From: Candidatus Berkelbacteria bacterium
GTDB taxonomy: Bacteria; Patescibacteriota; UBA1384; XYA2-FULL-43-10; CAINNR01
Length of the DNA: 64,000 nucleotides
NCBI GenBank assembly: GCA_037142675.1
Contig: JBAXAF010000004.1
Coordinates: 326 to 64,325, forward strand
Direction: 5' to 3'
Shown here: positions 5,305-36,597 of the stretch, in pieces
Layout: the number at the start of each line of letters is the position of its first letter
Position numbering within the stretch: position 1 is the first letter of the stretch
Position numbers and translations under genes: made by a program
Notes under the pieces: model-generated
Told to the model about the DNA's origin: nothing
The model's input: the letters and a program-made list of their open reading frames with translations, nothing else
Databases searched by the model: none

Positions 5305-5334
5305 CAAACGGGGCTTTTTTTATTGACTCACGAT

Positions 5335-5362: not shown

Positions 5363-5432
5363 GCTCGTACACAGTAACGCGTAAATAGGCCGGGCCTGGG
5401 GGCCATCACAATTCCCAGCAGAGGACATAGAA

Positions 5433-6044: not shown

Positions 6045-6118
6045 TGCTGAACACTGAGCAATGAACGAGTACAAGCGTCTGGCCGACTTCTGGTCAGGCG
6101 CTTTTTTAATTCAAATAA

Positions 6119-9990: not shown

Positions 9991-10156
9991 TCCTGTCATC
10001 CTCGGGCTTGCCTGCCCGCCTTTGGAGGGACCCGGGGATCCATTAATAGTTAAGACTTCGCACATATCGTCTAAAAAATCGTCGATAACACATTAATTCT
10101 AGCATAATTGGCACAAATTAGTCAAGTATTATTTGTCTAAATCATTGTCTAATATA

Positions 10157-15423: not shown

Positions 15424-16293
15424 TCAGGCAGACCTGACCGTGGCAGCATCCTCGGGCTGGCCAATGATCTGGCGGTACTTGTCGCGTAGCTCCGGCGACA
15501 ACCTCTCTGTCATGCTGATAGCGTCTCGACGGCCGCACAGGCTATCGTGGTGAGTGATGTGGGCGGCAACCAGTTTTTCGACTGCCGCCTCACGTTTGGC
15601 CGGTGGGAAGAGCGGGATCATGCACTCGGCATAATCGAGCCGGTAACTGGCGCTGCATGCTTCGTGGAAAAGCGCACGAAGACGCTTCTGGTCTCTAATG
15701 AAACCGAGCTCGGAGCTGAAACCGTTGACATCGCGGTAGGTGTACTGCGATCGGTGATGTTCAGCCGGGTGCATATCCATCTCGAGCAGGGAGAAGAACA
15801 GCCTCTCAAATGCTGCGTGTCGCAACCGCTTCGAGTCGATGGCGCGGATCGACCGCAGTGTTTCTTCGACGTTCCAGAAGCCATACCGGCAAAGCTGCAC
15901 GTTGGCGGCGTCACGGTCCTTTTTTGGGAGACCGACGATTGCTTTTCGCACTATGCGAATGTCGGAGTTCCGACGTGCGAGGTACTTCGGCATCCAGGTC
16001 ATAACCTCGTCGGTGTTCAGGTGACGACCAACGACCTCGAGATCGCGAAGCATGCCGTCGTAGTTGTAGCCATTTTCAACCACAATGGCTACAACTTTGC
16101 CTGCCTGCCCAGGTTGGAGCTCCTTTGGCAGTAGCGGAATGGCGGTGATGAGCGCAATCCTGAGCTGTTGGTGGCTGATCATCTTATCGATGACACCTGT
16201 TACCAGCTCCACCTTTCGCTCGGCGCTCATGTCTTGGAAGCAGTAGCTTAGCTGGCGCTCATATTCGTCCCCCCCAGATGTGGCTGACGGCAC
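15424..16293 (-). CDS. GC-rich hypothetical protein (island F)
   Basis: 289 aa; overlaps the upstream gene by 35 nt. Confidence 0.55.
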   Translation of the reverse strand: MPSATSGGDEYERQLSYCFQDMSAERKVELVTGVIDKMISHQQLRIALITAIPLLPKELQPGQAGKVVAIVVENGYNYDGMLRDLEVVGRHLNTDEVMTWMPKYLARRNSDIRIVRKAIVGLPKKDRDAANVQLCRYGFWNVEETLRSIRAIDSKRLRHAAFERLFFSLLEMDMHPAEHHRSQYTYRDVNGFSSELGFIRDQKRLRALFHEACSASYRLDYAECMIPLFPPAKREAAVEKLVAAHITHHDSLCGRRDAISMTERLSPELRDKYRQIIGQPEDAATVRSA

Positions 16294-16798
16294 AGTTGTA
16301 CCTGGCCATGACTAAGCAATGCAGCCGGTCTTCTGAGCGGTATTTGCTATTGGTCAGGCTTGAAGCATCCCTGGCCTGGTAATCGTAGCCGCCGAGGATA
16401 GTCAGCTCGTGAATTCGTCTTCCGACCTGTTTGCGCAGATGTTTTGTTTCGATCTTCCGGCACCAGTTGATCGCCGCCCAGAGTAGGGCCGCTGATCTGT
16501 GGTTATCGCTGCAAATTTCGACCTCAGCGATAAACTGGTTACAGGCTGCAAGTCGAAGATTATCAGCCTTGTCGCCGAGAAGTGCAGCAATTCTTGAGAG
16601 TGATTGCTCGGACTGGTGGATAGTGCGCCCGGTCATCCCGCCACCAGGTGTGATAATCACCATCCAGTGGATTAAGGACTTGGCGCATACCATCAACTGG
16701 TGATAAGTCAGACTGTGTCCGAGTTGGGTCACCAGGGTCACGGCCGCGTCAATATCACCAGCGATGATCAGAGCAGACAACAATTGCAAGGATCTCAT
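16259..16798 (-). CDS. GC-rich hypothetical protein (island F)
   Basis: 179 aa; RBS gagagg; minus-strand promoter TTGATT-17-TATAAC at about 16842-16870. Confidence 0.55.
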   Translation of the reverse strand: MRSLQLLSALIIAGDIDAAVTLVTQLGHSLTYHQLMVCAKSLIHWMVIITPGGGMTGRTIHQSEQSLSRIAALLGDKADNLRLAACNQFIAEVEICSDNHRSAALLWAAINWCRKIETKHLRKQVGRRIHELTILGGYDYQARDASSLTNSKYRSEDRLHCLVMARYNCAVSHIWGGRI

Positions 16799-16919
16799 TG
16801 TAGGTTCCTCTCACAAATCGGGTTGATTGTGAAACACCTAAGTTATATCAGCAAGCAATATTTTAATCAAATTTAATAAAAAAAACGCGGCGAAGGAACT
16901 CGCCGCGTGTACTCTTTGC

Positions 16920-18578
16920 TCAGATGTATCCGCTTTTTAGCCGGAAGTACATTCTGGCACTCACGTAACGGAAGAGGCGGACAGCTCGCGCCAGCCTGAC
17001 TCGTTGTGACGGTGAACTCATCAGAAATCCTGCTACTGCATGCTCGTCTTCGGCTGTTGCCAGCTTTTCGATGGCGTAGGCATGCAGCCCCTTTGGATGT
17101 ATGGGGTAGAGCCACTTGCTTTTGAAACAAATAGCTTCGGTGATGATTGGAATATAAGCTGGCGCAAGCTCAGATTGCCGGCTTATTTTGATGCCTGTGA
17201 CTGTCGGCATCAGCCCATGCCAGTTGATTGAACGGACGACCCAGTCGCGCTCATTGGCGCTGACGTTATCCAGTAACCCAGCCAGCAGGACAGGACCAAT
17301 ACGCTGGATGGCGGCGCGGTACTCGACTTCTGACGCGCCTTTGCAGAATGTCATTGCGGCGCCAACATGTTCGGCCCCAAATCGGCGTTCAAGAGCCCCA
17401 AAACTCATTGTGTGTGCCAAAGGCTTCAGCATTGCCGGCACAATCAGCGGGTTTCTGGACAACTCTGGAATGATCTCCTGTTCGGGACCGAAGATTCCCA
17501 TTTGTGGGTACCTTGGCAAAAGCAATTCTTGGGTCGCCATCCGCGCTTCTGACCGGTCGATGCGATTGCAGTTTCTGATCACCTCGCCAGCATCAACTTC
17601 TTCCAGTGCAACCGCCCAGAGGATGATCATCTTGCCGCCTTGATTCCCCCGATAGAGCGCATCAGGTGCGCCCATCTCGAAGGCCTCGACTACCCAGTGT
17701 CTGTCTGTCGGCGACCTCCATGTCTGGATGGCTTCTTGCAGTTCTCTCTCCTCAATCGACTCGATCTCGTTTTGTTTTGACAGCGCCAAGATCGCCGACA
17801 CCTCGGTTACCGTGCCGCGCCGGCCAAGTAATACCGAAATGACGGGAAGCAGGAAACCAGCCATTGGGAGACCGTGGTTTGCTACCAGGTTCGCAGCCTC
17901 GTGAATAAGTAGCGGCTGTCGTCCCCGACGATCGATCGTCTCTGCCTCGTAGAAAAGGCTAATGATCTGCCGTTCGTCCAGCCCTTCTACCCGAAATCGG
18001 CTGGCAAGCGCAGAGATGTAATCGTAGCCGAGCTCGGCGGTGTGGTAGCCCCACCAGAACCGGTCTTGAGCGTGTTCGTATTGTGGGTCATGATACTCTG
18101 GCAGTACGCCACGTCGGGAGGTCTCAGAAGGTGGAGGAGCCAAGTCCATGCCCATTTTGATCTCGGCTAGCCCGAACTTGACCGCTCCATCGATGTAGGA
18201 AGTCAGTCGGTTCGTGCCATAAGGATATTCCATATGTAGCACAAACTCGGTGGTCTCGCAGACCAGGTCGTAATTTCCGGCCTTAATCTGCCTGCCAATC
18301 TTCACCGAACAGTAATCATCAAGCGCAAGTTTGAACTTCGCCTGATACTCTATTAGCCTGGCCAGTGTTGGGTAGCCAATACGGGCAGCAATGTGCTTGA
18401 GCAGTTTGACGTATGCCCAAAGGCGCACATCTCCCTTTTCGGTGGTCACTTCGCACTCGTCATCACACTTTGTGACCTTTGGCTGAAGGCGTCGGACCTG
18501 CTGCAAGAGCTTCAAGCTCTCCAACAGAAACGGCTCAAGTTTGCCACTAATCTCCAAAAGTGCAACCCATGGTCTCAT
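16920..18578 (-). CDS. GC-rich large hypothetical protein (island F)
   Basis: 552 aa; minus promoter TTGACA-16-TAAGAT at 18609-18636; terminator cgcggcgaaggaactcgccgcg at 16888-16910. Confidence 0.6.
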   Translation of the reverse strand: MRPWVALLEISGKLEPFLLESLKLLQQVRRLQPKVTKCDDECEVTTEKGDVRLWAYVKLLKHIAARIGYPTLARLIEYQAKFKLALDDYCSVKIGRQIKAGNYDLVCETTEFVLHMEYPYGTNRLTSYIDGAVKFGLAEIKMGMDLAPPPSETSRRGVLPEYHDPQYEHAQDRFWWGYHTAELGYDYISALASRFRVEGLDERQIISLFYEAETIDRRGRQPLLIHEAANLVANHGLPMAGFLLPVISVLLGRRGTVTEVSAILALSKQNEIESIEERELQEAIQTWRSPTDRHWVVEAFEMGAPDALYRGNQGGKMIILWAVALEEVDAGEVIRNCNRIDRSEARMATQELLLPRYPQMGIFGPEQEIIPELSRNPLIVPAMLKPLAHTMSFGALERRFGAEHVGAAMTFCKGASEVEYRAAIQRIGPVLLAGLLDNVSANERDWVVRSINWHGLMPTVTGIKISRQSELAPAYIPIITEAICFKSKWLYPIHPKGLHAYAIEKLATAEDEHAVAGFLMSSPSQRVRLARAVRLFRYVSARMYFRLKSGYI

Positions 18579-18684
18579 GGTTGGCCTCTATTCTTGAGTA
18601 TCGCACTCATCTTAGCTCATGATTGTTTTATGTCAATAAAAAAAGGCGGGTATTAGCCGCCGTTAGTATTTGTGCAAGCCAACT

Positions 18685-19503
18685 CTACTGTTGGCGTGGG
18701 TCCCTGACAGGCATGACTCCTTGGTTTGACAGACCGTGGTCTACAGTGTGGACCAGCGGGGAGCCGCCGGAGAGCGGTGACATGAGCCATGCGATATGGT
18801 TGGCCACGTCTTCAGCCTTGGTGTTCACCCCTAATGGAACGGCGTGTGGCACGGCCTCGTATAATGAGCCGAAGTTCTTAACTCCCTTCGCCGCGATGGT
18901 GTTGATCGGCCCAGCGTCCAGCAGGTGGATGCGCACATTGGACTTTCCCATGTCGCCGGCAAGGTAGAGCGCTATTGAATCCAGTAGAGATTTGGCACTC
19001 GCCATTTGCCAGTAGTCCTCGATGTACTTCTCGGCACCCAGGAGGAAAGTCATCGCCACTCCCACAGCACCGTCGTTTAGCCGCCGGCCGAACCCCATGG
19101 CACCTGGGCAGAGTAAGGCTTTCGACATCCAGTGGAAGGAAAGGGCATTGAGACTGAGTGTCTCGATCCATTCCTCGGTGGTCATTGAGAGGAAGTTTCG
19201 TCCTTCCTGCTGAATGCTTGCAGGAGCAGCAGCCACGCTGTGGAGGTATCCATCAAGCATGATCCCTCTGTCTTGCAGTTCGCAGCGCAGGCGGACAAAA
19301 TCATCCTCGATCGAGAAATCACACGGGAGGATGATCTCGCCATCCTGGCGGAATTTTTCCGCTCTTTCAACAATGCTCGGATGGCATGTGATTACGGGCC
19401 TTCCTCCGTGGTTGCGAACTGCTTCAACGGTAGCCGTTCCGATGCCGCCGCGTAGGCCGACGCCGGAAACAAGTATGGTTCGTCCTTCAAGTAATCGTGA
19501 CAC
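18685..19503 (-). CDS. FabI-like enoyl-ACP reductase / SDR family (island F)
   Basis: ILVSGVGLRGGIG...Y-x6-K (YWQMASAKSLLD)...DAGPINTIAAKG...VDHG aligns with FabI; GTG start with RBS aagaggtg; promoter TTGACA-18-TATTTT at 19550-19579. Confidence 0.7.
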   Translation of the reverse strand: MSRLLEGRTILVSGVGLRGGIGTATVEAVRNHGGRPVITCHPSIVERAEKFRQDGEIILPCDFSIEDDFVRLRCELQDRGIMLDGYLHSVAAAPASIQQEGRNFLSMTTEEWIETLSLNALSFHWMSKALLCPGAMGFGRRLNDGAVGVAMTFLLGAEKYIEDYWQMASAKSLLDSIALYLAGDMGKSNVRIHLLDAGPINTIAAKGVKNFGSLYEAVPHAVPLGVNTKAEDVANHIAWLMSPLSGGSPLVHTVDHGLSNQGVMPVRDPRQQ

Positions 19504-19667
19504 TAGAAAGCACCTCTTTGGGTTGCTGGTTTTATGGGTCTGCAAGAAGGAAAATACCATTTTTTATTATTGATGTCAATGACATCCAGGGCGGTAGAAC
19601 TAATATCTGACCAATCTGATAATTTTTGTGGTAAAATAGATCTAAATATTAAGGAGGAGGAAATATT

Positions 19668-20705: not shown

Positions 20706-22355
20706 ATGGTCGACATTGATCAAAAATTATTTAACTTGCGGCGGCAAGACGAAGAGGAGCTAACTCAAGCTTTGGCCGCTCGGCTTGGAATGGGTTACGT
20801 CGACATGGTCGGCTATCCTTTTGCGCCCGAGCTTTACATGTTGTTCCCGGCCGAAATAATGCTTCAATATGCCTTTGTCCCATATCTTAAAATCGGCAAA
20901 GAGATTAAGCTTGCCATTACAAATAGTTTAAACGATCGGTTGAAGAATTATTTAAATGAATATTCTCAGGCCAATAACACTAAGTTTGCCTTTTCGATAG
21001 TTTCTAAAACTGGCTTGCTCTATACTGTTGACTATTTTACCAAGCAGCAGGCCGAATTACAGAAAAAAAACCTGGCTATTTCTCAGCACCAAGAAGACCT
21101 AATTGACAAGGTTAGAACAGTGGCCGATATCGCCGAGGCAGCCAAAAGAGTCACAACCACTGAGCTGCTTGATTTGGTTCTAGTTTCAGCGGCGAAGATG
21201 AACGCATCAGATATTCATATTGAACCAGGGGAGGCAGATTTTCTTGTTCGTTTTCGAGTTGATGGTGTTTTGCAAGATGTCCTTAGGGCGAACTTGTCAG
21301 CATACAAATTTTTACTATCTCGAATTAAATTTTTAGCCAAACTGAAAATGGACGTAATGGTTGAGCCACAAGATGGCCGGTTCACCATTAAGCATGGATC
21401 AAGTGAAGTGGATTTGCGTGTGTCTACCTTACCTTCGGCTTACGGCGAAAGCATTGTTCTGCGTCTTTTGGGCCAAGAAATGTCAATTAAAAAATTAACT
21501 GATTTGGGCTTTCGCCCTGACGCACTGAAAATTATTAAAGATGCAATTTCCAAGCCACATGGGATGATATTAAATACAGGTCCGACTGGTTCTGGTAAAT
21601 CTACCACGCTCTATGCAGTAATTATGGAATTAAAAAAACCCGGAATCAAGATTATTTCACTCGAAGATCCTATTGAGTACCGGATATCGGGTGTTGAGCA
21701 AAGTCAGGTGGATCCTGAGGCCGGGTATACTTTTGCAGATGGTCTGCGAGCCGCCCTGCGCCAAGATCCGGACATTCTAATGGTTGGCGAGATACGCGAC
21801 AAGGAAACGGCTGAAATTGGCGTCCAGGCAGCTCTGACGGGCCACTTACTACTTTCAACTCTCCACTCAAATACTGCTGCTGCCGCATTACCGCGTCTTT
21901 TGGAAATTGGTGTCCGGCCATTTCTCTTGGCTGGTTCAATAAATTTAATTATGGGCCAGCGCCTAGTTCGGAGAATCTGTAAGTCATGTGCGCAACAATT
22001 TACTCCCACTGAACCAGTTTGGGAAGAGATACGAAATATACTTGTGCCAATTAAGGATCGGATAGAGCCACAAATTGCAGCTATGCTTGATTTGCCCATT
22101 GCCCAAGTTAAACTTAAACGCGGCATTGGCTGCCCAGCTTGCAATAAATCCGGATATTCTGGTCGTCAAGTCATTGTCGAGGTTTTGGTGCCAACTCCTG
22201 CTATGGAGGCTTTAATTGGCCGAGAAGCCACAATTGCCGAGTTTACAAAAACAGCCCTGACAGAAGGCCTAATTACCATGGAGCAAGATGGTTTGATTCA
22301 GGTTCTAAAAGGAGTTACAACTACAACTGAAGTTTGGCGAGTCACAAAAGATTAA
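20706..22355 (+). CDS. pilB: Type IV pilus / type II secretion assembly ATPase (PilB/GspE family)
   Basis: GPTGSGKSTTLYA Walker A, Asp box, CxxC...CxxC C-terminal motifs. Confidence 0.85.
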   Translation: MVDIDQKLFNLRRQDEEELTQALAARLGMGYVDMVGYPFAPELYMLFPAEIMLQYAFVPYLKIGKEIKLAITNSLNDRLKNYLNEYSQANNTKFAFSIVSKTGLLYTVDYFTKQQAELQKKNLAISQHQEDLIDKVRTVADIAEAAKRVTTTELLDLVLVSAAKMNASDIHIEPGEADFLVRFRVDGVLQDVLRANLSAYKFLLSRIKFLAKLKMDVMVEPQDGRFTIKHGSSEVDLRVSTLPSAYGESIVLRLLGQEMSIKKLTDLGFRPDALKIIKDAISKPHGMILNTGPTGSGKSTTLYAVIMELKKPGIKIISLEDPIEYRISGVEQSQVDPEAGYTFADGLRAALRQDPDILMVGEIRDKETAEIGVQAALTGHLLLSTLHSNTAAAALPRLLEIGVRPFLLAGSINLIMGQRLVRRICKSCAQQFTPTEPVWEEIRNILVPIKDRIEPQIAAMLDLPIAQVKLKRGIGCPACNKSGYSGRQVIVEVLVPTPAMEALIGREATIAEFTKTALTEGLITMEQDGLIQVLKGVTTTTEVWRVTKD

Positions 22356-22416: not shown

Positions 22417-22496
22417 GAAATGTTCCAGGGCGAGAGACAGTCTGTCTTTATGACCCCTCAGAGAACATCGTGTCGTGCATAAGGAGAGTGGAGAGC

Positions 22497-23051
22497 ATGC
22501 GCTCTATCACTGCTAGCTTGATTGTTCTGATTCTCGTTGCGAGCATCGCTTTCGCGCAGGGCAAGGACGCCAGGCGCCAGCGACCGCCGAACCCACAACA
22601 GGCGTTCCAGCGGGGACAGACCTGTAACACGCCGCAACAGCGGCGCCTGCAGCCCCATCGGCAGTACGACGCTCCTCGCCGCAACGACCGCGACCACGGA
22701 CGCCGCCCGATCACATTGGGCAGCATCCTCCACGACATCTTCAGCTCGCCTGTCGTCATCGTGGACGAGCGGCCAGACTACTATCCGCAGGTTTGCCAAA
22801 CGTCGCGCGTCGCAAAGGTTGTCGATGTGGACGGCGAAAATGTGTATGTGAACGCGCCGTTTGCAGTTGGTAGCCGAGTCCTTGATGTGTCATGGGTTCT
22901 CGACCCGGTGACAGACAGGAGAATATGTCGAAAAACCGACGCGACGCTAGTTGTTGTCGCATCAGATGGCCACAGATCTTCGCTCTGTCGGGTCATAAGT
23001 ACGGAGCCATGGTGCTTCGTCGCCCCGGGAGACGAAATAGTAGTACGCTAG
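22497..23051 (+). CDS. GC-rich small secreted protein (cassette G)
   Basis: MRSITASLIVLILVASIAFAQG signal peptide; RBS aaggagag; terminator gtgtctggcaatgaaattgccagacac at 23065-23100. Confidence 0.55.
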   Translation: MRSITASLIVLILVASIAFAQGKDARRQRPPNPQQAFQRGQTCNTPQQRRLQPHRQYDAPRRNDRDHGRRPITLGSILHDIFSSPVVIVDERPDYYPQVCQTSRVAKVVDVDGENVYVNAPFAVGSRVLDVSWVLDPVTDRRICRKTDATLVVVASDGHRSSLCRVISTEPWCFVAPGDEIVVR

Positions 23052-23210
23052 CTTGATTGTTCACGGTGTCTGGCAATGAAATTGCCAGACACCATTTTTA
23101 TTGGTTAATTTGAAACTAAAGTAACAAAAAAACCGCCCAGCATACTGCAGAAATTGCAATATGACCAAGGCGGTTTAATTTGTAACTCGAGAATCGTCAG
23201 TGCTAGAGAG

Positions 23211-23549
23211 CTATTTGACTGTTCCCTGTTGGATGCCTGTTCCAAGACCAACGGCGACTCTGGCAATGTAGTATGCGAGTATAATAATTATTATGCCGAT
23301 AATAGCGTTAATCACACCTTGCTGTCCCTTTTTAGCTGAATCCGGGTTGCCAGCAGCAGTAATGTAGAGAATACCTGAATAAATTAAATATGCAATTGCT
23401 AAAATTCCGGCAATCAATAAAACAAAATTAATAACAGTATTTGCAATGCTGGAGATTTGAGTACTGCCACCTGTTTGAGCAGGTTTAAGGAAATTAAATG
23501 TAGCAGCATGCGCTTTTGGCATTAACCAATTTGTAATCGTCGAAATCAT
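23211..23549 (-). CDS. Pilin-like small membrane protein with the Y-I-T-A-x-G-(N/D) C-terminal hairpin motif
   Basis: Signal/TM, ...LYITAAGNPDSAKKGQQGV..., second TM. Confidence 0.6.
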   Translation of the reverse strand: MISTITNWLMPKAHAATFNFLKPAQTGGSTQISSIANTVINFVLLIAGILAIAYLIYSGILYITAAGNPDSAKKGQQGVINAIIGIIIIILAYYIARVAVGLGTGIQQGTVK

Positions 23550-23627
23550 CGATCCTCCTTAAAAATTATTTTTTTATCGTTGCTAATTTAATAGTATTAC
23601 AGGCAAATTTGGTTGTCAAGCTTTTAC

Positions 23628-25976
23628 TTAAGCTACAATTAGGCCAAAGGTATTTATCAGCACATTAGCGGATAAAATTACCGCTAGTCCGATGACAGCC
23701 CAGACAATAGTTTTTTTAGCATTTTCGGCCTTTGAGTCATCGCCTAACGAGGTGATATAGAGAAAGCTTCCATAAAGGATAAGAAAAACAGCGACGACTT
23801 CGGCATAATAAATTGCCAGCTGAATGATTCGCCAGATAAAGCCGTTGTTATGACCAATAATGTCCATAATACTAGCGTTCGGACCGCCAAAACTTGTGGG
23901 CACAATGGTATTTGTATTAGATACTGGGTCGGGACTGTTGCCTATAATACCTTGTACTTCGGCAATGGTTGTTCTAACCAACATTACGCATAGTACGGCG
24001 CCGACAATCCCATAAACAGAAAATAATATTGCTTTTTTGCCAGTTTCTGCGCCCTTGGAGTCGCCGCCTGCGGTAATGTATTTCATGCCAGCGAGAATAA
24101 TGGCTAAGATTGCCACAATTCCCATTATCAATAGGGAGAAGCTGCCAATTTTATGGACTAGTCCGTCAATAGTTGTTAAAGCAGATTTTTGTAAATTCGC
24201 TGCCCATCCTGGGGTGACACTGCCTCCAGTAGTACCGTCTCCGCCGTTGCCTCCAGTTTCATCTCCTCCAGTCATGTTTTTGACGACGGTGATATTGGCG
24301 CTAACCACTGGGGAGGTGCCGTCATATTCGGGATAAGTCGCATCTGATGCATTTGCTTTTAATCCAAAAACTTTTAGCATCACCGTATATGTGCCGGCGG
24401 TGGAACCTGATGCGTCCCAAGTAACAACTTTAGGGCTGGCAATGGTAATTTCATTTTGTACAAATGGGCCAAAGGAACCTTTTTCAAAGCATCCAGTTGA
24501 ATCATTGTTTGTAATAGTATCTTGGCTGGCAGTACAAATGTACCAAGAAATTTTGCCAACTCGCCCTGGGCCAGTTGTATTTGTTAAATTATTTGGGTTC
24601 AAATTTGATGCAGTAATCTTTATCTGTACATTTTTAGCGGTAGCCTGGTTGCTTAAATCAACTGATGCTGGTGTGGTTACTGTCATCGGCACGGAGCCGC
24701 CGCCAGGTGTTACTATATCTCCTACTGCTGGTAAAACAGTGACGGTTTTTGAAACGTTGCCAAAGCTGTTGTCGCCGCTTAGTGTGCTGTATGCTTTTAG
24801 CATCAGGGTGCGTGCCGCAGGGTTGGAGGTGCTTGTGTCTTGGCTGGTATCTGGGCCCCAATCAAATGTACCACTGCGCTTGGCCCCATCCCAAGTGCAG
24901 CCAGTGCTGTCAGAGGTTAATTGGCTATCACTACCATTGAAGTCGATATTACAAAAAGTTTTTTGATCAATATTGAAAAGCACTCGATCGAGTGATGCTC
25001 CATTTGTCATATTTAAGCCACTGAGTTTAACTGAGAAAGTAACAACTTGGCTTTCAGAATGCTGAATTGTTCCAACGCTTGAAATTGTTAATCCGCTAGA
25101 ACTTGAATCACCTTGAATCTGTCTGTTATAATTCGCAACCGCGGCATCAATCTTGGTTTTGTTTATTGTGTCACCAATATTGTCTGCCTCGGCGGATGCA
25201 GAATGCAGAACTGCCAATGCTAAAGAGTTGGCGTGAGGTTTACTATAATGATAGCTATCATCAATTCTAACACCATAAGCGTATTGGCTTTGGGTAGCGC
25301 TAGTAATTGACTCTGAAGTGACATCGCTGTCGCAGATTCCAAGTGAATCAGTGCATAACGCAAGAACACTGGGATCCTTGGTTAATACTAAGTTTCCAGC
25401 GACCCGAAAATTACTAGCTGCTAGCAAGGCGGCGTGATCGTAAAGAGTGATAGCGCTACTTAGGGCTTGGACATCGGGGCCATTATTTGAACCTTGCGCT
25501 TTACCTTTCGCCCAAACTAAGAATTTGCGAGTCGCTGATGAACTAGCCGCGAGATCACCATAGGTGTAGTTGTAAGGTGGCATCGGCACAATCGCCATTG
25601 ATGCGGTGATGTAGTTTCCATCACTATCCGGATTGCTTTGATAAGGAACAATATAAGCTGGGTGGATACTGCTGCTACTGCCCATAACTGAACTGATTTC
25701 GGCGGTATTGTATATTTTGAGAAACGGCAGACTTGAGCCTGAAATACTGGAAATTGAATATTTGCTGGCCGGTACAGCGGCAATGGTTTCTGCGGAGTAA
25801 GTAAAATCCAGGTCGTGACCGTCGCCAACAAAGACATTGTTTGGATCGGCCGAGGCGAAAAATCCCTTGTACACTACCAGTGAGGTGATGAATAAAATAA
25901 CCAAACCGAAAAGTACGATCAGTAAGTTTCCAATAAATCTTTTTGAAAGTGTCTGCTTTTTCATTAAATTCCCCAA
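23628..25976 (-). CDS. Large surface protein with two C-terminal pilin-like TM-hairpin modules
   Basis: 782 aa; N-terminal TM; Ser/Thr/Gly-rich extracellular region; ...KYITAGGDSKGAETGKK... and ...YITSLGDDSKAENAKK... Confidence 0.6.
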   Translation of the reverse strand: MGNLMKKQTLSKRFIGNLLIVLFGLVILFITSLVVYKGFFASADPNNVFVGDGHDLDFTYSAETIAAVPASKYSISSISGSSLPFLKIYNTAEISSVMGSSSSIHPAYIVPYQSNPDSDGNYITASMAIVPMPPYNYTYGDLAASSSATRKFLVWAKGKAQGSNNGPDVQALSSAITLYDHAALLAASNFRVAGNLVLTKDPSVLALCTDSLGICDSDVTSESITSATQSQYAYGVRIDDSYHYSKPHANSLALAVLHSASAEADNIGDTINKTKIDAAVANYNRQIQGDSSSSGLTISSVGTIQHSESQVVTFSVKLSGLNMTNGASLDRVLFNIDQKTFCNIDFNGSDSQLTSDSTGCTWDGAKRSGTFDWGPDTSQDTSTSNPAARTLMLKAYSTLSGDNSFGNVSKTVTVLPAVGDIVTPGGGSVPMTVTTPASVDLSNQATAKNVQIKITASNLNPNNLTNTTGPGRVGKISWYICTASQDTITNNDSTGCFEKGSFGPFVQNEITIASPKVVTWDASGSTAGTYTVMLKVFGLKANASDATYPEYDGTSPVVSANITVVKNMTGGDETGGNGGDGTTGGSVTPGWAANLQKSALTTIDGLVHKIGSFSLLIMGIVAILAIILAGMKYITAGGDSKGAETGKKAILFSVYGIVGAVLCVMLVRTTIAEVQGIIGNSPDPVSNTNTIVPTSFGGPNASIMDIIGHNNGFIWRIIQLAIYYAEVVAVFLILYGSFLYITSLGDDSKAENAKKTIVWAVIGLAVILSANVLINTFGLIVA

Positions 25977-26563
25977 ACAGAAGTCTTAAACCCGGCAATA
26001 TTGCCAACCAATACAACCAGCATTAACAGCGCAGCACCCATGAGAGTGCTGAACAAAATATCTTTTGCTTCATTAATTGAGCTGGAGTCTCCTCTGCTAG
26101 TCATGTATTTAAACCCTGCATATATAACCATTAGGATTGAAAGTGCAACCGCGACTTTCATTGCAAAGCCGTACATTTTGCTAATATATTCGGTGTATGT
26201 ATAGCGTGTCCCGCTTTGTATTGCGTTGTCGGTTCCTCCATTTGGAAAACTAACGCCAACACCAACTCCCGCACCAGCATTAGTAGTTGTGTCAACGACT
26301 GTGGTTCCGGCCGGAGTGGCGGCCAAGGCAACAACTTTGTCATGATTGCTAGAAGAAGTTTCGGCAGCATCAATTTGTTCGTCTGTCACCGAGCTTTCAT
26401 TCCCCGTTACCGGGAGCATACAGGCGGTTGGCGCCGAGATGGGGTCATCAAAATAAACTGTAGAGTCTTCGGCCAGAATGTGGCTAGCAAAGCAAGCAAA
26501 AAGACTACAGACAATTGGTATTGTTGCCAGAGCCACTGTAATTTTATTACATCGATGAATCAT
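25964..26563 (-). CDS. Pilin-like membrane protein (third carrier of the motif)
   Basis: ...FKYMTSRGDSSSINEAKDILF... followed by a TM helix. Confidence 0.55.
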   Translation of the reverse strand: MIHRCNKITVALATIPIVCSLFACFASHILAEDSTVYFDDPISAPTACMLPVTGNESSVTDEQIDAAETSSSNHDKVVALAATPAGTTVVDTTTNAGAGVGVGVSFPNGGTDNAIQSGTRYTYTEYISKMYGFAMKVAVALSILMVIYAGFKYMTSRGDSSSINEAKDILFSTLMGAALLMLVVLVGNIAGFKTSVWGI

Positions 26564-26568
26564 TTTTG

Positions 26569-27258
26569 TTATTTATGGATATACCAATAGCCATTTAGCG
26601 CGCAAGAATTAAAAATATTTTCTACTGTGTCCTGGGTATTGTTGTTGTGAGGATCATTAATGTACACTGTGTTGCCGACAATTTTTGTTAGCACGATATA
26701 ATGGCTTCCCTTTGTATATTTTTGATTTTGACAATCACCAATAGTCATTATTATCGGAAGCAAATAATTGGATGGGTTTTGCGAATGCCATTTCAGATGT
26801 CTTTTTGCATCACTTGCTGATTGCTTCAGGATTTGTAGATTGTAGCGTTTGGCGAGTGCCGCAAGGCAGCCGGGAAAGTTGTATGTGCCGCCGTCAGTTC
26901 GGCGATATCCATTATCAAGACAATACTTGGCAGTTATCTGAGGTGTCACTTGCTGGCTTGTCCAATAACTTAAAACCATGGCGGCGGCTGTTGGTCCGCA
27001 GCCAGAGGTTGCAATTGTCGCTGGAGATTTTGCACCAGTTCTATCGTTAACCATCATCCCGTATTTATCTATATTTGAATCGTTGTACCAGGTTTGTTTA
27101 TAAAGTGGAACAGCGCAACTTGAATCGGGACCATTAGCAGAGACGGAAATTTTAGTTTGTACATAGGCAAAAACTATTGTCACCAAGGCAACTAACAAAG
27201 GGGCGGAGATAATTAATGCCACCAATTGTGTTTTTTTCAACTTAAATTTCAGACGCAT
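26569..27258 (-). CDS. C39-like (papain-fold) cysteine peptidase domain protein
   Basis: SGCGPTAAAMVLSYW catalytic Cys context; N-terminal TM. Confidence 0.65.
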   Translation of the reverse strand: MRLKFKLKKTQLVALIISAPLLVALVTIVFAYVQTKISVSANGPDSSCAVPLYKQTWYNDSNIDKYGMMVNDRTGAKSPATIATSGCGPTAAAMVLSYWTSQQVTPQITAKYCLDNGYRRTDGGTYNFPGCLAALAKRYNLQILKQSASDAKRHLKWHSQNPSNYLLPIIMTIGDCQNQKYTKGSHYIVLTKIVGNTVYINDPHNNNTQDTVENIFNSCALNGYWYIHK

Positions 27259-27262
27259 ATTT

Positions 27263-28672
27263 TTACCAAGTTGATTTTCTCAGAAGCGATGTAATATTGG
27301 CTGCGGCAGTATCGAGTGAGGCCTGAGAGCTCTGCGAGTGGTTATTGACGCGTGTTATTGCATCCTTGAATTGAAGGTCAACATCGACAGGATAGCGTCC
27401 CTTGTTCCATGTGATGATTGAATTGACAATATTCTCAGATGGTGGCTCACCAACACCCCTGTCCTTCAGAACTGGCGTTGGGTTCTCCTCCGGTTTTTTT
27501 GTTGATAATTCTTTGGTTGATGATTGATATGTACTAGCAGACTCAGTTGACAAGTTGAGAATAAAATTCCAGGCTGTATCAGGAAGAGTTGAATTTTGTG
27601 GCACAACATAACTAGTATATCTAGAATAGTCAACCATAGGGTTTAAATTACCGACCTGAGGGACCAAACTTCTTTCATAATCAAAGTTTGGATAAATTTG
27701 GGCAAAGTAATTTGTCAGATTAGTGTAGGAAAAAATGATTCCTACTTTTCCCTGGGCGAAAGCTTCGATGTCGATTGGCATGCTTGAGTTCCATGTGTAT
27801 TGTGGGCTTGTGGGGTTAGAATACTTTGTATAAAAATCCAGTGCATTTTTTCCGGCATAGACATCAGCGTTGGTGGTATTTTTAATTGGTAAATTAAGAG
27901 TTGATTGGCTCAGGTCGTCAGAAATTATTTTTGTTTGATTTTGGAGCATTAAAAGAGAGAAAATGTCAGCAGGGTATGAAATATTGTTGCTTGTTCCGAT
28001 CGCGGCACCAGCAATTTGAATGTTTGCGCCGTTCCTGACTGTTAGGTAGGGGATTAGAGCATCAAAATCTTCCCAGGTTGTTGGTGTGTTCTTAAAAATT
28101 GTTGAGATTTTTTCCAATTTGGCTTCATCATCTCCCGCTGAATTTTTAGCTCTTTCTTGTGCTTGTTCAAAAATTCTTGGGTTGTAATATATTTGCAAAA
28201 CATCAGTTGTTGGCGGCATGGCGTAAACCTGTTTATCAAAAATACTGTCAGAGACAACACTAGGGATAAAATATTCTGTCGGTTTAATTTTGGCGTTGTC
28301 TAGCAGTGCATTTGGTGCTGCTGCTAGTTTGTCTTTATGACGATATACCCAATCGTTGGGAATGGCCCAAACATCAGGGCCTTGTCCCGAAAGAATTGAG
28401 TTGAGAGAGTCGTTCTCATAGCCGCTGGTTAATGTTTTTTTTACATATTTTATGTCGATGTCTTTATTTTGGGCTGAAAAGTCTTTGATGATGGGATTGA
28501 AAACGTCTTCATCAACAAATCCCCAGATTACCAGAGAATTCGGTGCTGTGGCAGCCGGAGCGGTTCCACAGCCAGTTAGAGTTAATGCCATCGCAACGGC
28601 TAGTGTCGAGGTGCCAAAAATCTTTAGAAACTTGTTCCAAGCGAAACTTCTATGCTTTTTACTGTTTGCCAT
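27263..28672 (-). CDS. Lipoprotein, extracellular solute-binding-protein-like
   Basis: Lipobox LTGC after the signal peptide; 469 aa. Confidence 0.6.
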   Translation of the reverse strand: MANSKKHRSFAWNKFLKIFGTSTLAVAMALTLTGCGTAPAATAPNSLVIWGFVDEDVFNPIIKDFSAQNKDIDIKYVKKTLTSGYENDSLNSILSGQGPDVWAIPNDWVYRHKDKLAAAPNALLDNAKIKPTEYFIPSVVSDSIFDKQVYAMPPTTDVLQIYYNPRIFEQAQERAKNSAGDDEAKLEKISTIFKNTPTTWEDFDALIPYLTVRNGANIQIAGAAIGTSNNISYPADIFSLLMLQNQTKIISDDLSQSTLNLPIKNTTNADVYAGKNALDFYTKYSNPTSPQYTWNSSMPIDIEAFAQGKVGIIFSYTNLTNYFAQIYPNFDYERSLVPQVGNLNPMVDYSRYTSYVVPQNSTLPDTAWNFILNLSTESASTYQSSTKELSTKKPEENPTPVLKDRGVGEPPSENIVNSIITWNKGRYPVDVDLQFKDAITRVNNHSQSSQASLDTAAANITSLLRKSTW

Positions 28673-28755: not shown

Positions 28756-29628
28756 TTAAATATCCAAACTTTTCAAATAATCCTTAAGATCATCTCTTAA
28801 ATCGTCTCTCATTAATGCAAACTCGATATTGGTTTTAAGATAATTCAGGGGATTGCCAGTATCGTAAGATTTGCAACCTTTAACTTCGCAGCCATAAAGA
28901 GGCCCGTTTTTTACAATTGCATTCATGCCATCAACTAGCCAAATTTCATTGTCATTTCCAGGCACTGTCTCTTTTAGTGCCGGAAATATATCTGGTGTCA
29001 AAATAAAAGCACCTCGTTGTGCCAGGTTTGATGGTGGATTCTCTGGCCCAGGTTTTTCAACAATCCCTTTAAGTTCATGCACACCTCCACCAATATCTTT
29101 GCCGTCTAAAATTCCATATTGCGAATACTCTCGATCATTGGCCACTCTAAAGGCAGCAATAACTGGCCTTTCATATTTAGCATAAACCTCGGACATCTGG
29201 GTAATGGTAGGTGGATTAGCGAGATCGATTTCATCGGCCCAATGGACAACGAAGGGTTCGTTTCCAACCACTGCCTCAGCATTAAGAACTGGCGTTCCGT
29301 TACCGTAGTTTCCTTTCTGTCGTATGTAAACAAACTCAGCCATTCTAGAAATTTTTCTTATCTGATCTAGTATTTCCAACTTGCCATTTTTCTCGAGAAA
29401 ATTCTCCATTTCAGCGTCGTCATCAAAAAAATCCTCGATCTCGTGTTTGTGTGGATTGGTGACGATTATAATTTCTTCTATGCCGGACTTTACTAATTCT
29501 TCGACAACATAAAGAATCGTTGGTTTATCAACGACGGGTAACATCTCTTTTGGAATTGTTTTTACCGCTGGCAAAAAACGGGTACCATAACCCGCGGCCG
29601 GAATCACAGCCTTCCTGATCTTGCTCAT
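28756..29628 (-). CDS. galU: UTP-glucose-1-phosphate uridylyltransferase
   Basis: KAVIPAAGYGTRFLPAVKTIPKEMLPVVDKP. Confidence 0.88.
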   Translation of the reverse strand: MSKIRKAVIPAAGYGTRFLPAVKTIPKEMLPVVDKPTILYVVEELVKSGIEEIIIVTNPHKHEIEDFFDDDAEMENFLEKNGKLEILDQIRKISRMAEFVYIRQKGNYGNGTPVLNAEAVVGNEPFVVHWADEIDLANPPTITQMSEVYAKYERPVIAAFRVANDREYSQYGILDGKDIGGGVHELKGIVEKPGPENPPSNLAQRGAFILTPDIFPALKETVPGNDNEIWLVDGMNAIVKNGPLYGCEVKGCKSYDTGNPLNYLKTNIEFALMRDDLRDDLKDYLKSLDI

Positions 29629-30706: not shown

Positions 30707-31543
30707 CTATTGAAGTTTGGACAGCACTTCTAACACGGCCAGTGACCCGTAACCGATCTGTTGACGTCGCCCATGGTGAAACAGCAGGCACTCTGAGGGT
30801 GGTGGGTTGTTATCGTACTCAGTCGGAAGACCTAGCAGTGCCCGCTCGAGGAGTGTCATGCCAGAGCAGTTCTGTCGGACCGTCTGCCTGAAGGCCGTGA
30901 TGACATCGGCCAGTTCCGAGCTGACATCAGTTTGGTGGTCAGTCAGCAGTCTTTCGGCGAAAAAGGCTGAGACCGAAGGGGTGTAGAAGAGGGTCGAGGT
31001 CATGAAGTCCTCTACAGAACGCAGGCTTCTGGCTACATATTCCACGGTCCTCTTGGTGGCTTCGCCTAGACCACCCAGAAGGAAGTGGAGCCTGAGAATG
31101 TTGATCGAACTGGTCGGGTCCCAGTAGCTACCCGGGTTGTAGGGTGAGTAGTCGTCCTTGACCCAAACCCCGGTGCCCTTCTCGCTCTCGGAATTGGCGA
31201 TCAGTAGGTCGCGTGTCGGTGAGAGTGAATCGACGGATATCAACCCGGCTCTCACTAGCAGCCAGATGATAAACGCTGTATCCTCCCAGTCCGGAGGATA
31301 GAACGGGTTGAAGCACCAGAGCGCTCGTCCCTCACACTCATCCGGCACCCTCCTCGAGCTGAGAAATGTCAGCGCTTCAGCTACCTGTTTCTCGTCCATG
31401 TCGGTGAGCTGCGCGAGATAGACAACGATCGCCGTTATTGCGACCGTATCGACAGTTCTCGCCTCCCCCGTCTCCTTGTTATACATCGTCGTCGGCACCT
31501 GACCCGATTTCAGCTGCCCCGACAACTTTGTAGCGCCGATTGC
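30707..31543 (-). CDS. GC-rich hypothetical protein (cassette H)
   Basis: Start MAIGATKL with RBS gggag; about 278 aa. Confidence 0.55.
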   Translation of the reverse strand, partial: AIGATKLSGQLKSGQVPTTMYNKETGEARTVDTVAITAIVVYLAQLTDMDEKQVAEALTFLSSRRVPDECEGRALWCFNPFYPPDWEDTAFIIWLLVRAGLISVDSLSPTRDLLIANSESEKGTGVWVKDDYSPYNPGSYWDPTSSINILRLHFLLGGLGEATKRTVEYVARSLRSVEDFMTSTLFYTPSVSAFFAERLLTDHQTDVSSELADVITAFRQTVRQNCSGMTLLERALLGLPTEYDNNPPPSECLLFHHGRRQQIGYGSLAVLEVLSKLQ

Positions 31544-31689
31544 CATAATTATCACTCCCGTCCAAGTTTGTCCGATTTGTCAGACAGCTAATTATAGGTG
31601 GGTTACTTGCTAATATCTATACCGATTGACAGAAATACCGAAAAGATCTAAAATTAGTCTATAAATCAGTTGTCTAAAAGGTTCGACAA

Positions 31690-32442
31690 ATGTTTGTTAA
31701 ACAGCTTGAACAATTAGGACTCAATGAAACAGAAGCCAAAACATACTTGGCGCTTTTGAAAATCGGCAGTTCCTCGGTCGGAACTTTAAGCAAAGAATCG
31801 GGCATTGCTAGGACGACTCTTTACTATTCCATTGAAGAGTTGAAGAAGAAGGGTTTTGTCTTTGAAAAGCTTATAGATCAGAAAAAGCGCTTGATCCCAC
31901 GATCGCCGGAGTTCTTGGGTAAAAAAGCTGAGAAACTAGCGCAGCAGGCTCATGAGACGGCTAAGTCGATTTCCAGTCTTATTCCAGCATTAAAAAAGCT
32001 AGCCAAGGAAGATAGCTCTTATTCGACAGTCAACCACTATGAAGGCAAAGAGAGTGTTTGGGAAGTTTTTGAGATTATTCTGCGATCAAATAAAGATAGT
32101 TTGTGGTTTGGCTTTGGTCAGAGTTTTCTTGAGAATTATGATTTTGATTATTTTGTAACCAATTTCAGTAAAAAACGCCGACAGTTTGGACGCACAAAAT
32201 CCTTTAACATAATCCCGCCATTCAAAAGTGCAGCAAAAATAGCCACAAGGGGAGAAACCGATTTTCAAGAATTTCGGTTCTTGGGTAAAGATCAGAACTT
32301 TAATGCTGGTATTTGTATATTTGGAAATAAAATAGCAATTTTTTCATATGACAATGTTTTGTCGGCGACTTTAATTCAAGGCGACGCAATCGCAGAAATA
32401 GCTAGCACTATGTTTAAAATGATATGGAAATCTCTGAGCTAA
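31690..32442 (+). CDS. TrmB-family HTH regulator (paralog 3)
   Basis: LGLNETEAKTYLALLKIGSSSVGTLSKESGIARTTLYYSIEEL; promoter TTGACA-17-TAAAAT at 31625-31653. Confidence 0.8.
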   Translation: MFVKQLEQLGLNETEAKTYLALLKIGSSSVGTLSKESGIARTTLYYSIEELKKKGFVFEKLIDQKKRLIPRSPEFLGKKAEKLAQQAHETAKSISSLIPALKKLAKEDSSYSTVNHYEGKESVWEVFEIILRSNKDSLWFGFGQSFLENYDFDYFVTNFSKKRRQFGRTKSFNIIPPFKSAAKIATRGETDFQEFRFLGKDQNFNAGICIFGNKIAIFSYDNVLSATLIQGDAIAEIASTMFKMIWKSLS

Positions 32443-34314: not shown

Positions 34315-35094
34315 TTGAAAAAAGGAAAAGGAATGCCAAAGATAAATTTAGAACAATTTGGGATGAGCAGTGAGGAAGCCAAGGTATATTTGGCTCTAGT
34401 AAAGCGTGGGTCGTCGGGAGTAATGGATATCTCCCATGAATCAAATCTTAGTCGCTCAACCACCTATTATCATTTGGAAGCCCTGCTTTCCAAAGGACTG
34501 GTTTCACAATCGTTTAATGGCAAGAAGCACATTTACACACCATCAAAGCCAAAGGTTTTAGAACGAATCTTAGAACAAAAGGAACTGGAACTTGCGGATC
34601 AAAAACAAAGTTTACCCAGCTTGCTAAAACGGATTGAAAACATTGCCGCCCAACAGGCGACGGATCCGGAAGCACAAATATTAAAGGGTAAAATTGGTCT
34701 TTTACAGATTCTTGACAGTGTTCTTGGTGCTTCGGGTGACATTTACTTCATTGGCTCGCATGATGTTGTTCTCAAAAACGAGAGCTTGTTTTCAACAGAA
34801 TTTTTTCTTCGTAATTTTACAGCCAAACGCCGGCAAAAAGGAAAAAGTGTTGCCTGGATCATTGGCGATGAAAGTGAAATTACTTTGCGCCAGAAGCGCG
34901 AACAAGATACGGAGTTTCGGAAAATTAAAGTTTGGTCAGAACTTGCGAACATGAATGGCGGTTTAATTGTCTATGGCTCAAAGGTGTTGTTTTACAGTGT
35001 TTCAGGAGAAGCTACAGCTTATATCATCCACAATCCAGTAACTTCCGAGATCTTAAAAGTTATGTTTAAAATGATATGGAGTTCATTGGAATAA
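34315..35094 (+). CDS. TrmB-family HTH regulator (paralog 4)
   Basis: FGMSSEEAKVYLALVKRGSSGVMDISHESNLSRSTTYYHLEAL. Confidence 0.8.
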   Translation: MKKGKGMPKINLEQFGMSSEEAKVYLALVKRGSSGVMDISHESNLSRSTTYYHLEALLSKGLVSQSFNGKKHIYTPSKPKVLERILEQKELELADQKQSLPSLLKRIENIAAQQATDPEAQILKGKIGLLQILDSVLGASGDIYFIGSHDVVLKNESLFSTEFFLRNFTAKRRQKGKSVAWIIGDESEITLRQKREQDTEFRKIKVWSELANMNGGLIVYGSKVLFYSVSGEATAYIIHNPVTSEILKVMFKMIWSSLE

Positions 35095-36466: not shown

Positions 36467-36597
36467 ACAGTTTCTAACCGATTCTAGCATTTTCAAAGTC
36501 GAATGACAACCGCTTGACAGCATCTCTTAGCGTCTGTTACGTTCATGGGGCCGAAAGGCGTACCTATCAAACGCTCTTGAAAGGAGCGAATACAATC

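Follow-up and report, generated by a model that had tools for sequence, protein, structure and literature searches.

VirB2-like hairpin proteins and a solute-binding-type lipoprotein in one operon of a Berkelbacteria genome: probable parts of a surface apparatus of the candidate phyla radiation

Much of bacterial diversity belongs to the Patescibacteria, whose members live attached to the cells of a host. Near the replication origin of a Candidatus Berkelbacteria bacterium, a compact group of minus-strand genes encodes a lipoprotein, a peptidase and three proteins with a common membrane hairpin, which raises the question of what such a combination builds and what drives its assembly. We analysed this locus within a stretch of 64,000 nucleotides (assembly GCA_037142675.1, contig JBAXAF010000004.1, positions 326 to 64,325 of the forward strand; hereafter the window, to whose first letter all coordinates refer unless another locus is named). 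A preliminary description, made from the sequence alone, had proposed a CPR (candidate phyla radiation) cell-surface filament or secretion system. This proposal gains support from the assignment of the hairpins to PF18895 (T4SS_pilin), from the conservation of their motif, from an operon-linked lipoprotein and from peptidase fusions in related bacteria. We consider it probable, at roughly 60%, that the operon encodes those components of a Patescibacterial surface apparatus that lie in the membrane or outside the cytoplasm, the apparatus being built of two-helix modules of the VirB2/TrbC superfamily. Its most likely function would be that of a filament or display system on the cell surface that serves contact with a host.

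The genes at 28672-23211 (-) form one tightly packed five-gene operon with intergenic gaps of 4, 5, -1 and 78 bp, in which a solute-binding protein (SBP) is followed by a peptidase with a transmembrane (TM) anchor and by three pilin-like proteins, here called mid, big and small. In order of transcription, and at the positions given in the preliminary description, these genes are:

27263-28672, minus strand: operon gene 1, lipoprotein of the SBP_bac_1 family (469 aa; lipobox LTGC, membrane-tethered)
26569-27258, minus strand: C39-like (papain-fold) cysteine peptidase (229 aa; N-terminal TM anchor; clade-specific accessory gene)
25964-26563, minus strand: mid pilin (199 aa; signal peptide, Ser/Thr/Ala-rich ectodomain, one C-terminal hairpin)
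23628-25976, minus strand: big pilin (782 aa, or 778 aa from the annotated start at 25964; two tandem VirB2-like hairpins)
23211-23549, minus strand: small pilin (112 aa; one hairpin)

The order SBP, mid, big and small pilin is retained in orthologues with identities as low as 40%. With three consecutive genes and four hairpins, the locus is a pilin array in the sense of Quiñonero-Coronel 2025, that is, at least two pilin genes in tandem or one non-pilin gene apart. The position of the window near the replication origin is indicated by dnaN and dnaA at 891-3882 (-) and by yidC at 12510-13382, and a GalU-type nucleotidyltransferase gene (28756-29628) lies directly upstream of the SBP gene.

The hairpins, which give the locus its character, were located as follows:

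26003-26194, minus strand: hairpin of the 199-aa protein (aa 124-187)
23943-24170, minus strand: hairpin 1 of the 782-aa protein (aa 603-678; loop KYITAGGDSKGAETGKK)
23634-23840, minus strand: hairpin 2 of the 782-aa protein (aa 713-781; loop LYITSLGDDSKAENAKK)
23235-23462, minus strand: hairpin of the 112-aa protein (aa 30-105)

As first reported, the 112-aa and 199-aa proteins have one copy each of the shared motif Y[IM]T[AS]xG[ND] and the 782-aa protein has two, and each copy is flanked by two hydrophobic stretches of approximately 19 residues (hydropathy). When the motif was relaxed and sought in the six-frame translation of the 64 kb, exactly these four sites were hit and no others. The preliminary description had compared the modules to VirB2/TrbC or pilins, and profile searches bear this out by assigning the three proteins to PF18895 and not to unrelated families. 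The 112-aa protein matches with 43.0 bits (E=5e-11) and the 782-aa protein, over two stretches, with 53.5 bits (E=2.6e-14), both above the cut-off of 26.6 bits, and the 199-aa protein has a sub-threshold match that is weighed below. Forty single hairpins from the window and from distant relatives were also scanned one by one; all 40 match PF18895, and half of them (20/40) additionally match PF04956 (TrbC/VirB2; best E=4.9e-7). NCBIfam NF045849 (Mbov_0395 pilin-like conjugal transfer protein) matches the 112-aa protein (E=2.3e-7) and hairpin 2 of the big pilin (E ~1e-7), the score of 30 bits lying under the family cut-off of 40 bits, and weak DctQ matches (small subunit of tripartite ATP-independent periplasmic transporters; E ~1e-3) were obtained for 3/40 hairpins. 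The 782-aa protein is, moreover, 100% identical to an NCBI record named 'MAG: pilin'. These profiles place the hairpins in PF18895, with overlap to the TrbC/VirB2 profile, and it is this overlap, not structure, that suggests their membership of the VirB2/TrbC superfamily. Hairpins and loops show strong conservation in the orthologues of both the small and the big pilin, which come from other metagenomes.

The lipoprotein provides the most regular feature of these loci. Its LTGC sequence, already noted in the preliminary description, is the lipobox of a protein of the sugar-SBP family. PF01547 (SBP_bac_1) matches its orthologues, the 469-aa window protein itself has no Pfam match at E≤0.1, and the closest solved relative is the maltose-binding protein 8art (E=5e-11). 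Relatives are tethered by a lipobox (LTGC) or by an N-terminal TM helix. Scanning one genome per species (GTDB) with an SBP profile yielded 79 loci, labelled as Berkelbacteria, Saccharibacteria, Doudnabacteria, Moranbacteria, Andersenbacteria, Portnoybacteria, Spechtbacteria, Paceibacterota, Parcubacteria and others. Where at least 500 bp of DNA was available downstream of the SBP gene, the locus was counted as informative, and its six-frame open reading frames (ORFs) were searched with a hairpin hidden Markov model (HMM). All 72 informative loci contain a hairpin array on the same strand that starts 0-720 bp past the SBP stop codon, and the six loci without a hairpin match all end within 470 bp of the SBP gene. 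The hairpin ORFs lie downstream on the SBP strand without exception (301/301), with none in 532 kb of upstream DNA, and the SBP-headed arrays comprise 3-12 hairpin genes (median 4.5). On an unrelated CPR contig of 52% GC (L013), an SBP_bac_1 gene, whose product is 30% identical to that of the window, is located directly upstream of a pilin array.

The flanks of these loci vary by lineage. In the Berkelbacteria-type loci, HSP20 and GalU genes precede the SBP gene, and the pilin genes are followed by a convergent PilB gene, whereas 38 other loci show the order MBL-fold protein, GyrA, SAM methyltransferase, SBP and pilins. Only the SBP-array unit is conserved across lineages. This shows that, across CPR lineages, such arrays are invariably headed by an SBP-fold gene, and the universal operon linkage ties the lipoprotein functionally to the hairpin proteins. 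No genes for an ABC permease or ATPase are present in the 64-kb window or among the recurrent neighbours at the 79 loci. The tethered SBP-fold protein may act outside the membrane together with the hairpin proteins, either as a receptor for a ligand or host glycan or as an assembly partner, and would be their obligatory extracytoplasmic partner. A fusion of SBP and hairpin in one protein was also considered and rejected, with no case among the 120 best SBP relatives. As a separate observation, lspA (signal peptidase II) recurs upstream of the SBP gene in eight loci, including L043 (9161-9583), at a median distance of 1.6 kb (range 0.3-5.4 kb), which fits the SBP being a lipoprotein.

Among the three hairpin proteins, the small pilin has the simplest build, a single hairpin preceded by a short conserved leader (…NWLMPKAHA) and about 20 variable residues. 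Its loop, YITAAGNPDSAKKGQQG(V/I)INAIIG, stays nearly invariant even where the large pilin has only 53% identity. The AlphaFold2 model is a plain two-helix hairpin (aa 30-64 and 69-105) with a pLDDT (predicted local distance difference test) above 90 in the helices and a basic loop between them. The leader is 16 aa long, conserved and ends in AHA, and the gene has a perfect AAGGAGG ribosome-binding site. Because it lacks an ectodomain and its gene has the strongest ribosome-binding site and possibly a promoter of its own, the 112-aa protein is a candidate for the major subunit of a filament. Leaders of this kind are found in many small hairpin proteins (P0103-P0159; window 23502-23549): they are 10-16 aa long, read …NWL[VMI]xKAHA or xxLIxKxYAA, and have an AxA-like end and no hydrophobic core, and other small hairpin proteins carry full-length signal peptides with the same terminal motif.

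The mid and big pilins carry additional domains in front of their hairpins. In the 199-aa protein, a signal-peptide-like N-terminus is followed by a variable ectodomain of about 90 aa rich in Ser, Thr and Ala; the hairpin of this family is conserved and its ectodomain variable, with an fn3 domain in that position in the orthologue of locus L001. The hairpins of the 782-aa protein are C-terminal and in tandem, which corrects the preliminary description, and both loops are invariant across five orthologues with 47-80% identity. The AlphaFold2 model of this protein (mean pLDDT 75.9) comprises an N-terminal helix (aa 12-39; signal peptide or anchor), an alpha/beta domain (aa 45-285), Ig-like beta-sandwiches (aa 288-565), a disordered Gly-rich linker (aa 571-607) and the two hairpins, with helices at 603-635/640-678 and 713-742/747-781. 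Ala43 is invariant in 18 relatives, and an invariant linker motif, FGGPNAS, precedes hairpin 2 throughout the family. A Foldseek search of the model against the PDB returned only generic Ig-like or Fab-type matches. Full-length relatives of the protein are few, approximately 12 compared with 4,912 representatives that share the hairpin (among 1.84 billion representative proteins).

A VirB2-type hairpin has its two termini on the outer side of the membrane, and the N-terminal ectodomains of the 199-aa and 782-aa proteins are therefore predicted to be displayed on the surface. Both proteins may use the hairpin as a C-terminal anchor or as a unit of incorporation, presenting a variable Ser/Thr-rich stalk in the case of the mid pilin, and an alpha/beta domain followed by Ig-like beta-sandwiches in the case of the big pilin. 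They could thus be decorated minor or tip pilins, or adhesins for contact with the host cell.

Fusions of the hairpin are widespread among relatives. With an HMM built from the hairpins of the window, we identified 152 hairpin-bearing proteins among those retrieved, 124 of which have at least two hairpins, a set biased towards multi-hairpin proteins because the query had two. Up to eight hairpins directly follow one another, repeating about every 75 aa. Such 'polypilins' with 6-8 hairpins and linkers of 5-15 aa include P0049 (820 aa; L014 9925-12387), P0045 (583 aa; L011 4904-6655) and P0043 (501 aa; L013 9751-11256), all of which sit inside pilin arrays of other CPR bacteria. Other relatives combine the hairpin with SLT, Peptidase_M23, Peptidase_C10, fn3 or PKD domains. 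At L010 10001-12523, for example, a hairpin-C39_2 protein is followed by a hairpin-Peptidase_M23 protein, beside radA and recG, and L014 13152-16481 encodes a hairpin-PKD protein and, after it, a multi-PKD protein of 718 aa. We also observed genes for GT2/GT4 glycosyltransferases inside some arrays (L012/L019 10558-11226; L066 15042-16232), and all through the Berkelbacteria-type clade the SBP gene has a GalU-type gene directly upstream. These genes and the Ser/Thr-rich ectodomains together give a hint of pilin glycosylation.

The second gene of the operon had been described as encoding a C39-fold peptidase, and this identification is sound. The 229-aa protein matches PF13529 (Peptidase_C39_2; E=5.6e-12, covering SGCGPTAAAMVLSYW) and PF03412 (E=1.2e-5), and the Cys (SGCGPT), His (GSHYIVL) and NDP motifs are conserved in its orthologues and fused homologues. 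A TM helix (aa 12-30) follows a Lys-rich N-terminus, so that the catalytic domain is predicted to face outward. Two proteins of other CPR bacteria, P0022 and P0025, combine a signal peptide, a hairpin and a C39_2 domain in one polypeptide, and two C39_2 homologues bear SH3_3 (PF08239), a domain common in bacterial cell-wall hydrolases. The peptidase is a clade-specific accessory gene, linked to the hairpins by the two gene fusions elsewhere in the CPR. PrgK-type VirB1 hydrolases of monoderm type IV secretion systems (T4SSs) combine M23/LytM, SLT and papain-fold peptidase domains, and because the types of enzyme found fused to hairpins match this set, a role in the cell wall is favoured for the C39-like enzyme. 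By analogy, the most likely target of the outward-facing peptidase would be the cell wall, like that of the CHAP and LytM domains in VirB1-type hydrolases from monoderm T4SSs.

Since cleavage by classical C39 enzymes occurs after Gly-Gly, a different role is conceivable for this gene. The peptidase could mature the pilins, cutting precursors outside the membrane and releasing mature pilin units, with candidate sites at FGG|PNAS between the hairpins of the 782-aa protein or at GGS…WAAN before hairpin 1. The GG motifs in the extracytoplasmic linkers of the 782-aa family are invariant and predicted to lie on the same side of the membrane as the peptidase domain, and the joining of peptidase and hairpin in P0022 and P0025 would suit such a function. 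However, the GG motifs of the neighbouring pilins are only partly conserved and are not retained in the 112-aa and 199-aa orthologues, and orthologous loci encode the same 780-aa protein without the peptidase. The enzyme belongs to PF13529 and not to the bacteriocin-processing C39 group, whose context it does not share, being a stand-alone protein of 229 aa with no ABC exporter in the locus, and the other enzymes fused to hairpins (SLT, M23) are peptidoglycan hydrolases. Trimming of pilin precursors is therefore the less likely role, and we think it doubtful. A GG cleavage site common to all pilins was rejected, as it is conserved in the 782-aa family only.

What would drive the assembly of these proteins? 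The hairpin proteins may polymerise into a pilus, driven by a VirB4-type T4SS that is presumably encoded elsewhere in the genome. In this respect, and in several others, there are results that weigh against the reading as a surface apparatus of VirB2-type modules. No VirB4, VirB6 or VirD4 domain was found by Pfam in the window ORFs of at least 150 aa, and the ORFs without a Pfam match have no Walker A motif. At none of the 79 SBP-headed loci, for which every large Walker-A ORF was searched against Pfam, was a VirB4-like ORF found within ±10 kb. With one exception at L018, described below, the searches of the window and of these loci gave FtsK, SMC, ChlI, IF2, FtsH, Clp and DnaA. The link to T4SSs thus depends on the homology of the pilin module. 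As for that homology, the PF18895 match of the 199-aa protein (24.9 bits, E=2.2e-5) is slightly below the gathering score of 26.6 bits, and its TrbC match has E=0.065. A search of the hairpin profile against PDB sequences gave chance TM matches only and no solved VirB2, TraA or TrbC chain. Foldseek returned nothing at E≤0.001 for the 112-aa model, the archaeal (A. pernix) conjugation pilus 8dfu being at rank 13 with E=1.9 in what is a non-specific search; the fold of a bare helical hairpin is so simple that such a comparison with solved pilins does not discriminate. A tblastn search of the small pilin against plasmids gave no match, and its leader is too short for a normal Sec signal peptide. 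The peptidase gene is present in only 3 of 78 species-level loci and is missing in the orthologous loci L001 and L012; as most related loci do not have it, it is not a core component. Finally, many relatives are single polypeptides of 2-8 fused hairpins, for which a route of polymerisation is hard to picture. We know of no such fusion of 2-8 hairpins in characterised VirB2 pili.

The only conjugation-type ATPase near any of the 79 loci is a 1243-aa fusion of a type IV coupling protein and a relaxase (TrwB_AAD_bind and TraG-D_C with Replic_Relax) in a Berkelbacteria metagenome-assembled genome (L018 2215-5943, minus strand), approximately 4 kb upstream of the SBP-pilin operon. A literature search for VirB4 in Berkelbacteria found nothing, and the entries listed in the available part of the supplementary genome table of PMC12102498 include no Berkelbacteria.

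A different candidate motor is encoded in the neighbourhood on the other side of the operon, where the following features are found:

23591-23619, minus strand: promoter-like site TTGACA-17-TACTAT, a consensus match in the 78-bp gap 5' of the small pilin gene
23065-23093, no strand assigned: palindrome with a 13-bp stem, terminator-like, between the converging operon and the orf193/pilB side
20706-22355, plus strand: pilB, convergent (tail-to-tail) with the operon

Promoter- and terminator-type sites in this region are no more frequent than in shuffled sequence, and the first two features are thus weak hints. The preliminary description placed pilB upstream, but the gene is convergent with the operon and not transcriptionally upstream of it. 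Its product is a GspE/PilB-type ATPase and not VirB11 (T2SSE E=1e-118; TIGR02533, TIGR02538). The proteins of the operon might accordingly be accessories of a type IV or competence pilus and work with the adjacent PilB, as the preliminary description implied. The co-conservation with pilB, which was to be checked according to that description, holds in one clade, with the PilB gene being the convergent neighbour in all 14 Berkelbacteria-type loci that extend far enough, but not in the 38 gyrA-type loci of other lineages, from which it is absent, so that PilB was rejected as a universal neighbour. Even within the clade its adjacency weighs little, as the whole neighbourhood is syntenic (HSP20, GalU, DUF7544, glycosyl hydrolase family 1, YidC). 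Furthermore, no credible class III prepilin (G-[FM]-T-L-x-E) was detected in the six frames of the window, pilC, pilM and pilD were not found there, and the hairpins belong to a different fold family from type IV pilins. A role in a type IV pilus is hence very improbable.

The distance from virB4 together with the abundance of poly-hairpin fusions keeps two further alternatives in play. One is that the hairpin proteins oligomerise into a channel or permease-like assembly fed by the tethered SBP, forming an uptake conduit of a new kind that is independent of T4SSs. The constancy of the SBP as first gene in many CPR lineages without an ABC permease or ATPase beside it, the separation of the arrays from virB4 within ±10 kb at all 79 loci, and the resemblance of multi-hairpin polypeptides (4-16 TM helices) to polytopic transporters would all fit such a conduit, as would the need of these bacteria to import most metabolites and the weak DctQ matches mentioned above. 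These matches are, however, at the level expected of TM-rich sequence, the operon has no energy-coupling component, and the kinship of the hairpins is with conjugative pilins and not with transporters. Fusions to Ig-like, PKD, fn3 and hydrolase domains are better explained by surface display or penetration of the envelope, and none of the best SBP relatives is fused to a hairpin, which leaves the conduit improbable. The same fusions lend themselves to the other alternative, in which the PF18895 hairpin is a generic two-TM tether, C-terminal or internal, that holds extracellular domains such as adhesins and hydrolases on the bacterium's own membrane and forms no filament, the small 'pilins' being degenerate or regulatory. 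The hairpin is indeed joined to many unrelated ectodomains, which may stand before or after it, a pattern that the 782-aa and 199-aa proteins follow. Most array members have no ectodomain to anchor, though, including the highly conserved 112-aa protein, and a passive anchor would not need a cytoplasmic loop motif of such high conservation. In addition, six small pilins inside a T4SS locus of Southlakia are essential or cause a growth defect in transposon sequencing (Tn-seq), and we consider anchoring alone to be about as improbable as the conduit.

A broader possibility, which we put forward tentatively and regard as unlikely on present evidence, is that the SBP-headed operon is an ancient, near-universal envelope apparatus of the CPR that works without a VirB4-type T4SS and takes up or senses host-derived molecules. 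Candidates for such an apparatus would be a filament assembled by another route, or an SBP-fed conduit of hairpin proteins and polypilin fusions. If true, this would represent a second, non-conjugative use of the conjugative-pilin fold.

Returning to the preferred reading of a surface apparatus of VirB2-like modules, VirB2-like arrays are widespread in Patescibacteria and as a kind already known (Wang 2023; Quiñonero-Coronel 2025). In Southlakia epibionticum, six PF18895 pilins (SEML1_0014-0019) are encoded in a T4SS locus and are essential or show a growth defect by Tn-seq (PMC10633639), this being the one species of Patescibacteria in which the need for VirB2-like pilins has been examined. 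Quiñonero-Coronel et al. 2025 reported 441 arrays of 2-11 pilin genes (PF18895 and PF04956) in 383 assemblies, often near the origin (PMC12102498), and a 2025 review draws attention to such arrays as possibly the first pilus seen in a monoderm T4SS (PMC12857230). The window array resembles those of Southlakia and the 'Sec-secreted array' of Nanosynbacter lyticus TM7x in its family assignment (PF18895, partly PF04956) and in its layout of divergent paralogues in tandem, on one strand of the chromosome and near the origin. However, the described arrays were defined around virB4, and here no T4SS core gene is found within 27-36 kb. The Southlakia array is divergent from the VirB6, PrgI and VirB4 genes and has no SBP gene, and the SBP-fold lipoprotein at the head, the 782-aa ectodomain protein with two hairpins and the embedded C39-like peptidase set the present locus apart from the described Patescibacterial arrays.

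These three features are not mentioned in the main text of PMC12102498 or in the available parts of PMC10633639 and PMC12857230, and the same sources contain no description of polypilin fusions. The terms 'solute', 'substrate-binding' and 'ABC transporter' do not occur in the main text of PMC12102498, where 'fused' and 'fusion' refer to VirB3-VirB4 only. A full-text search joining VirB2, solute-binding and candidate phyla radiation found nothing, its coverage of the literature being partial. The preliminary description had called the components poorly described, which is correct only in part, as VirB2-like arrays are treated in these papers. What appears to be new is the lipoprotein partner, the lack of a motor nearby, the hairpin fusions and the linkage to an accessory peptidase; as far as we could find, the fixed partnership with a lipoprotein and the distance from the secretion motor have not been described.

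Comparison with more distant systems shows similar mixtures of shared and deviating traits. With VirB2, TrbC and TraA of Gram-negative T4SSs (PF04956), the hairpin proteins share a leader, two hydrophobic helices, a short basic loop and the overlap of profiles. In contrast to Gram-negative VirB2 and TraA, they occur in a monoderm host, have no VirB5 or VirB4 gene nearby, and include tandem-fused and ectodomain-bearing forms. The weak match of the 112-aa protein and of hairpin 2 to the family of Mbov_0395 from a Mycoplasma integrative and conjugative element (ICE; NF045849) connects two monoderm groups with systems of the MPF-FATA type, although the score falls short of the family cut-off and no ICE surrounds the locus. 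PrgK of pCF10 (LytM, SLT and CHAP), which is cited in PMC12102498, is likewise a membrane-anchored, outward-facing hydrolase encoded with its apparatus, and the hairpin-fused M23/LytM, SLT and papain-fold enzymes of the CPR are of the same types. Unlike PrgK, the peptidase of the window is C39-like (PF13529) and not CHAP, and occurs in few related loci, and its action on the cell wall is a predicted one. The SBP, for its part, is homologous at the family level to the SBP lipoproteins of ABC transporters (SBP_bac_1, maltose/sugar) and shares with them the lipobox or TM tether, but it has no permease or ATPase genes beside it and is always followed by VirB2-like hairpin genes.

The window array alone would be routine; what deserves attention is the conservation of the SBP-pilin operon, its distance from virB4 and the architectures of the fusions. 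The SBP lipoprotein is the fixed, presumably ligand-binding partner of one virB4-distant class of arrays and is amenable to expression and screening. The polypilins and the pilins bearing Ig-like, PKD, SLT, M23 or C39 domains constrain any model of a filament and suggest ways in which a monoderm could decorate one or breach the wall of a host. The locus thereby raises the question of whether these pilins need a T4SS at all; should the operon merely supply extra subunits to a distant T4SS, the result would amount to an incremental annotation.

Further observations concern the remainder of the window. Between the small pilin gene and pilB lies an ORF of 193 aa (22470-23051) with a signal-peptide-like start, which is absent in the 80%-identical relative L002. 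It coincides with one of several GC-rich islands (4699-6074, 15424-19560, 22470-23051 and 30707-31555; 54-59% compared with 44% overall) whose ORFs have no Pfam match. Two dnaA genes with 33% identity are found less than 35 kb apart, one beside dnaN (2431-3882, minus strand; 37.5% GC) and one inside a GC-rich patch (36514-37995, plus strand; 54% GC), the second of which may have been acquired. Five paralogues of a TrmB-family regulator are encoded within the 64 kb (6119-6907, 9235-10065, 31690-32442, 34315-35094 and 56194-56928). Lastly, a 499-aa protein encoded at 60272-61771 on the plus strand has an N-terminal TM anchor, the HExxH-type sequence HEYGHH and C-terminal repeats that look Ig-like by sequence, and may be a putative surface metalloprotease or adhesin.

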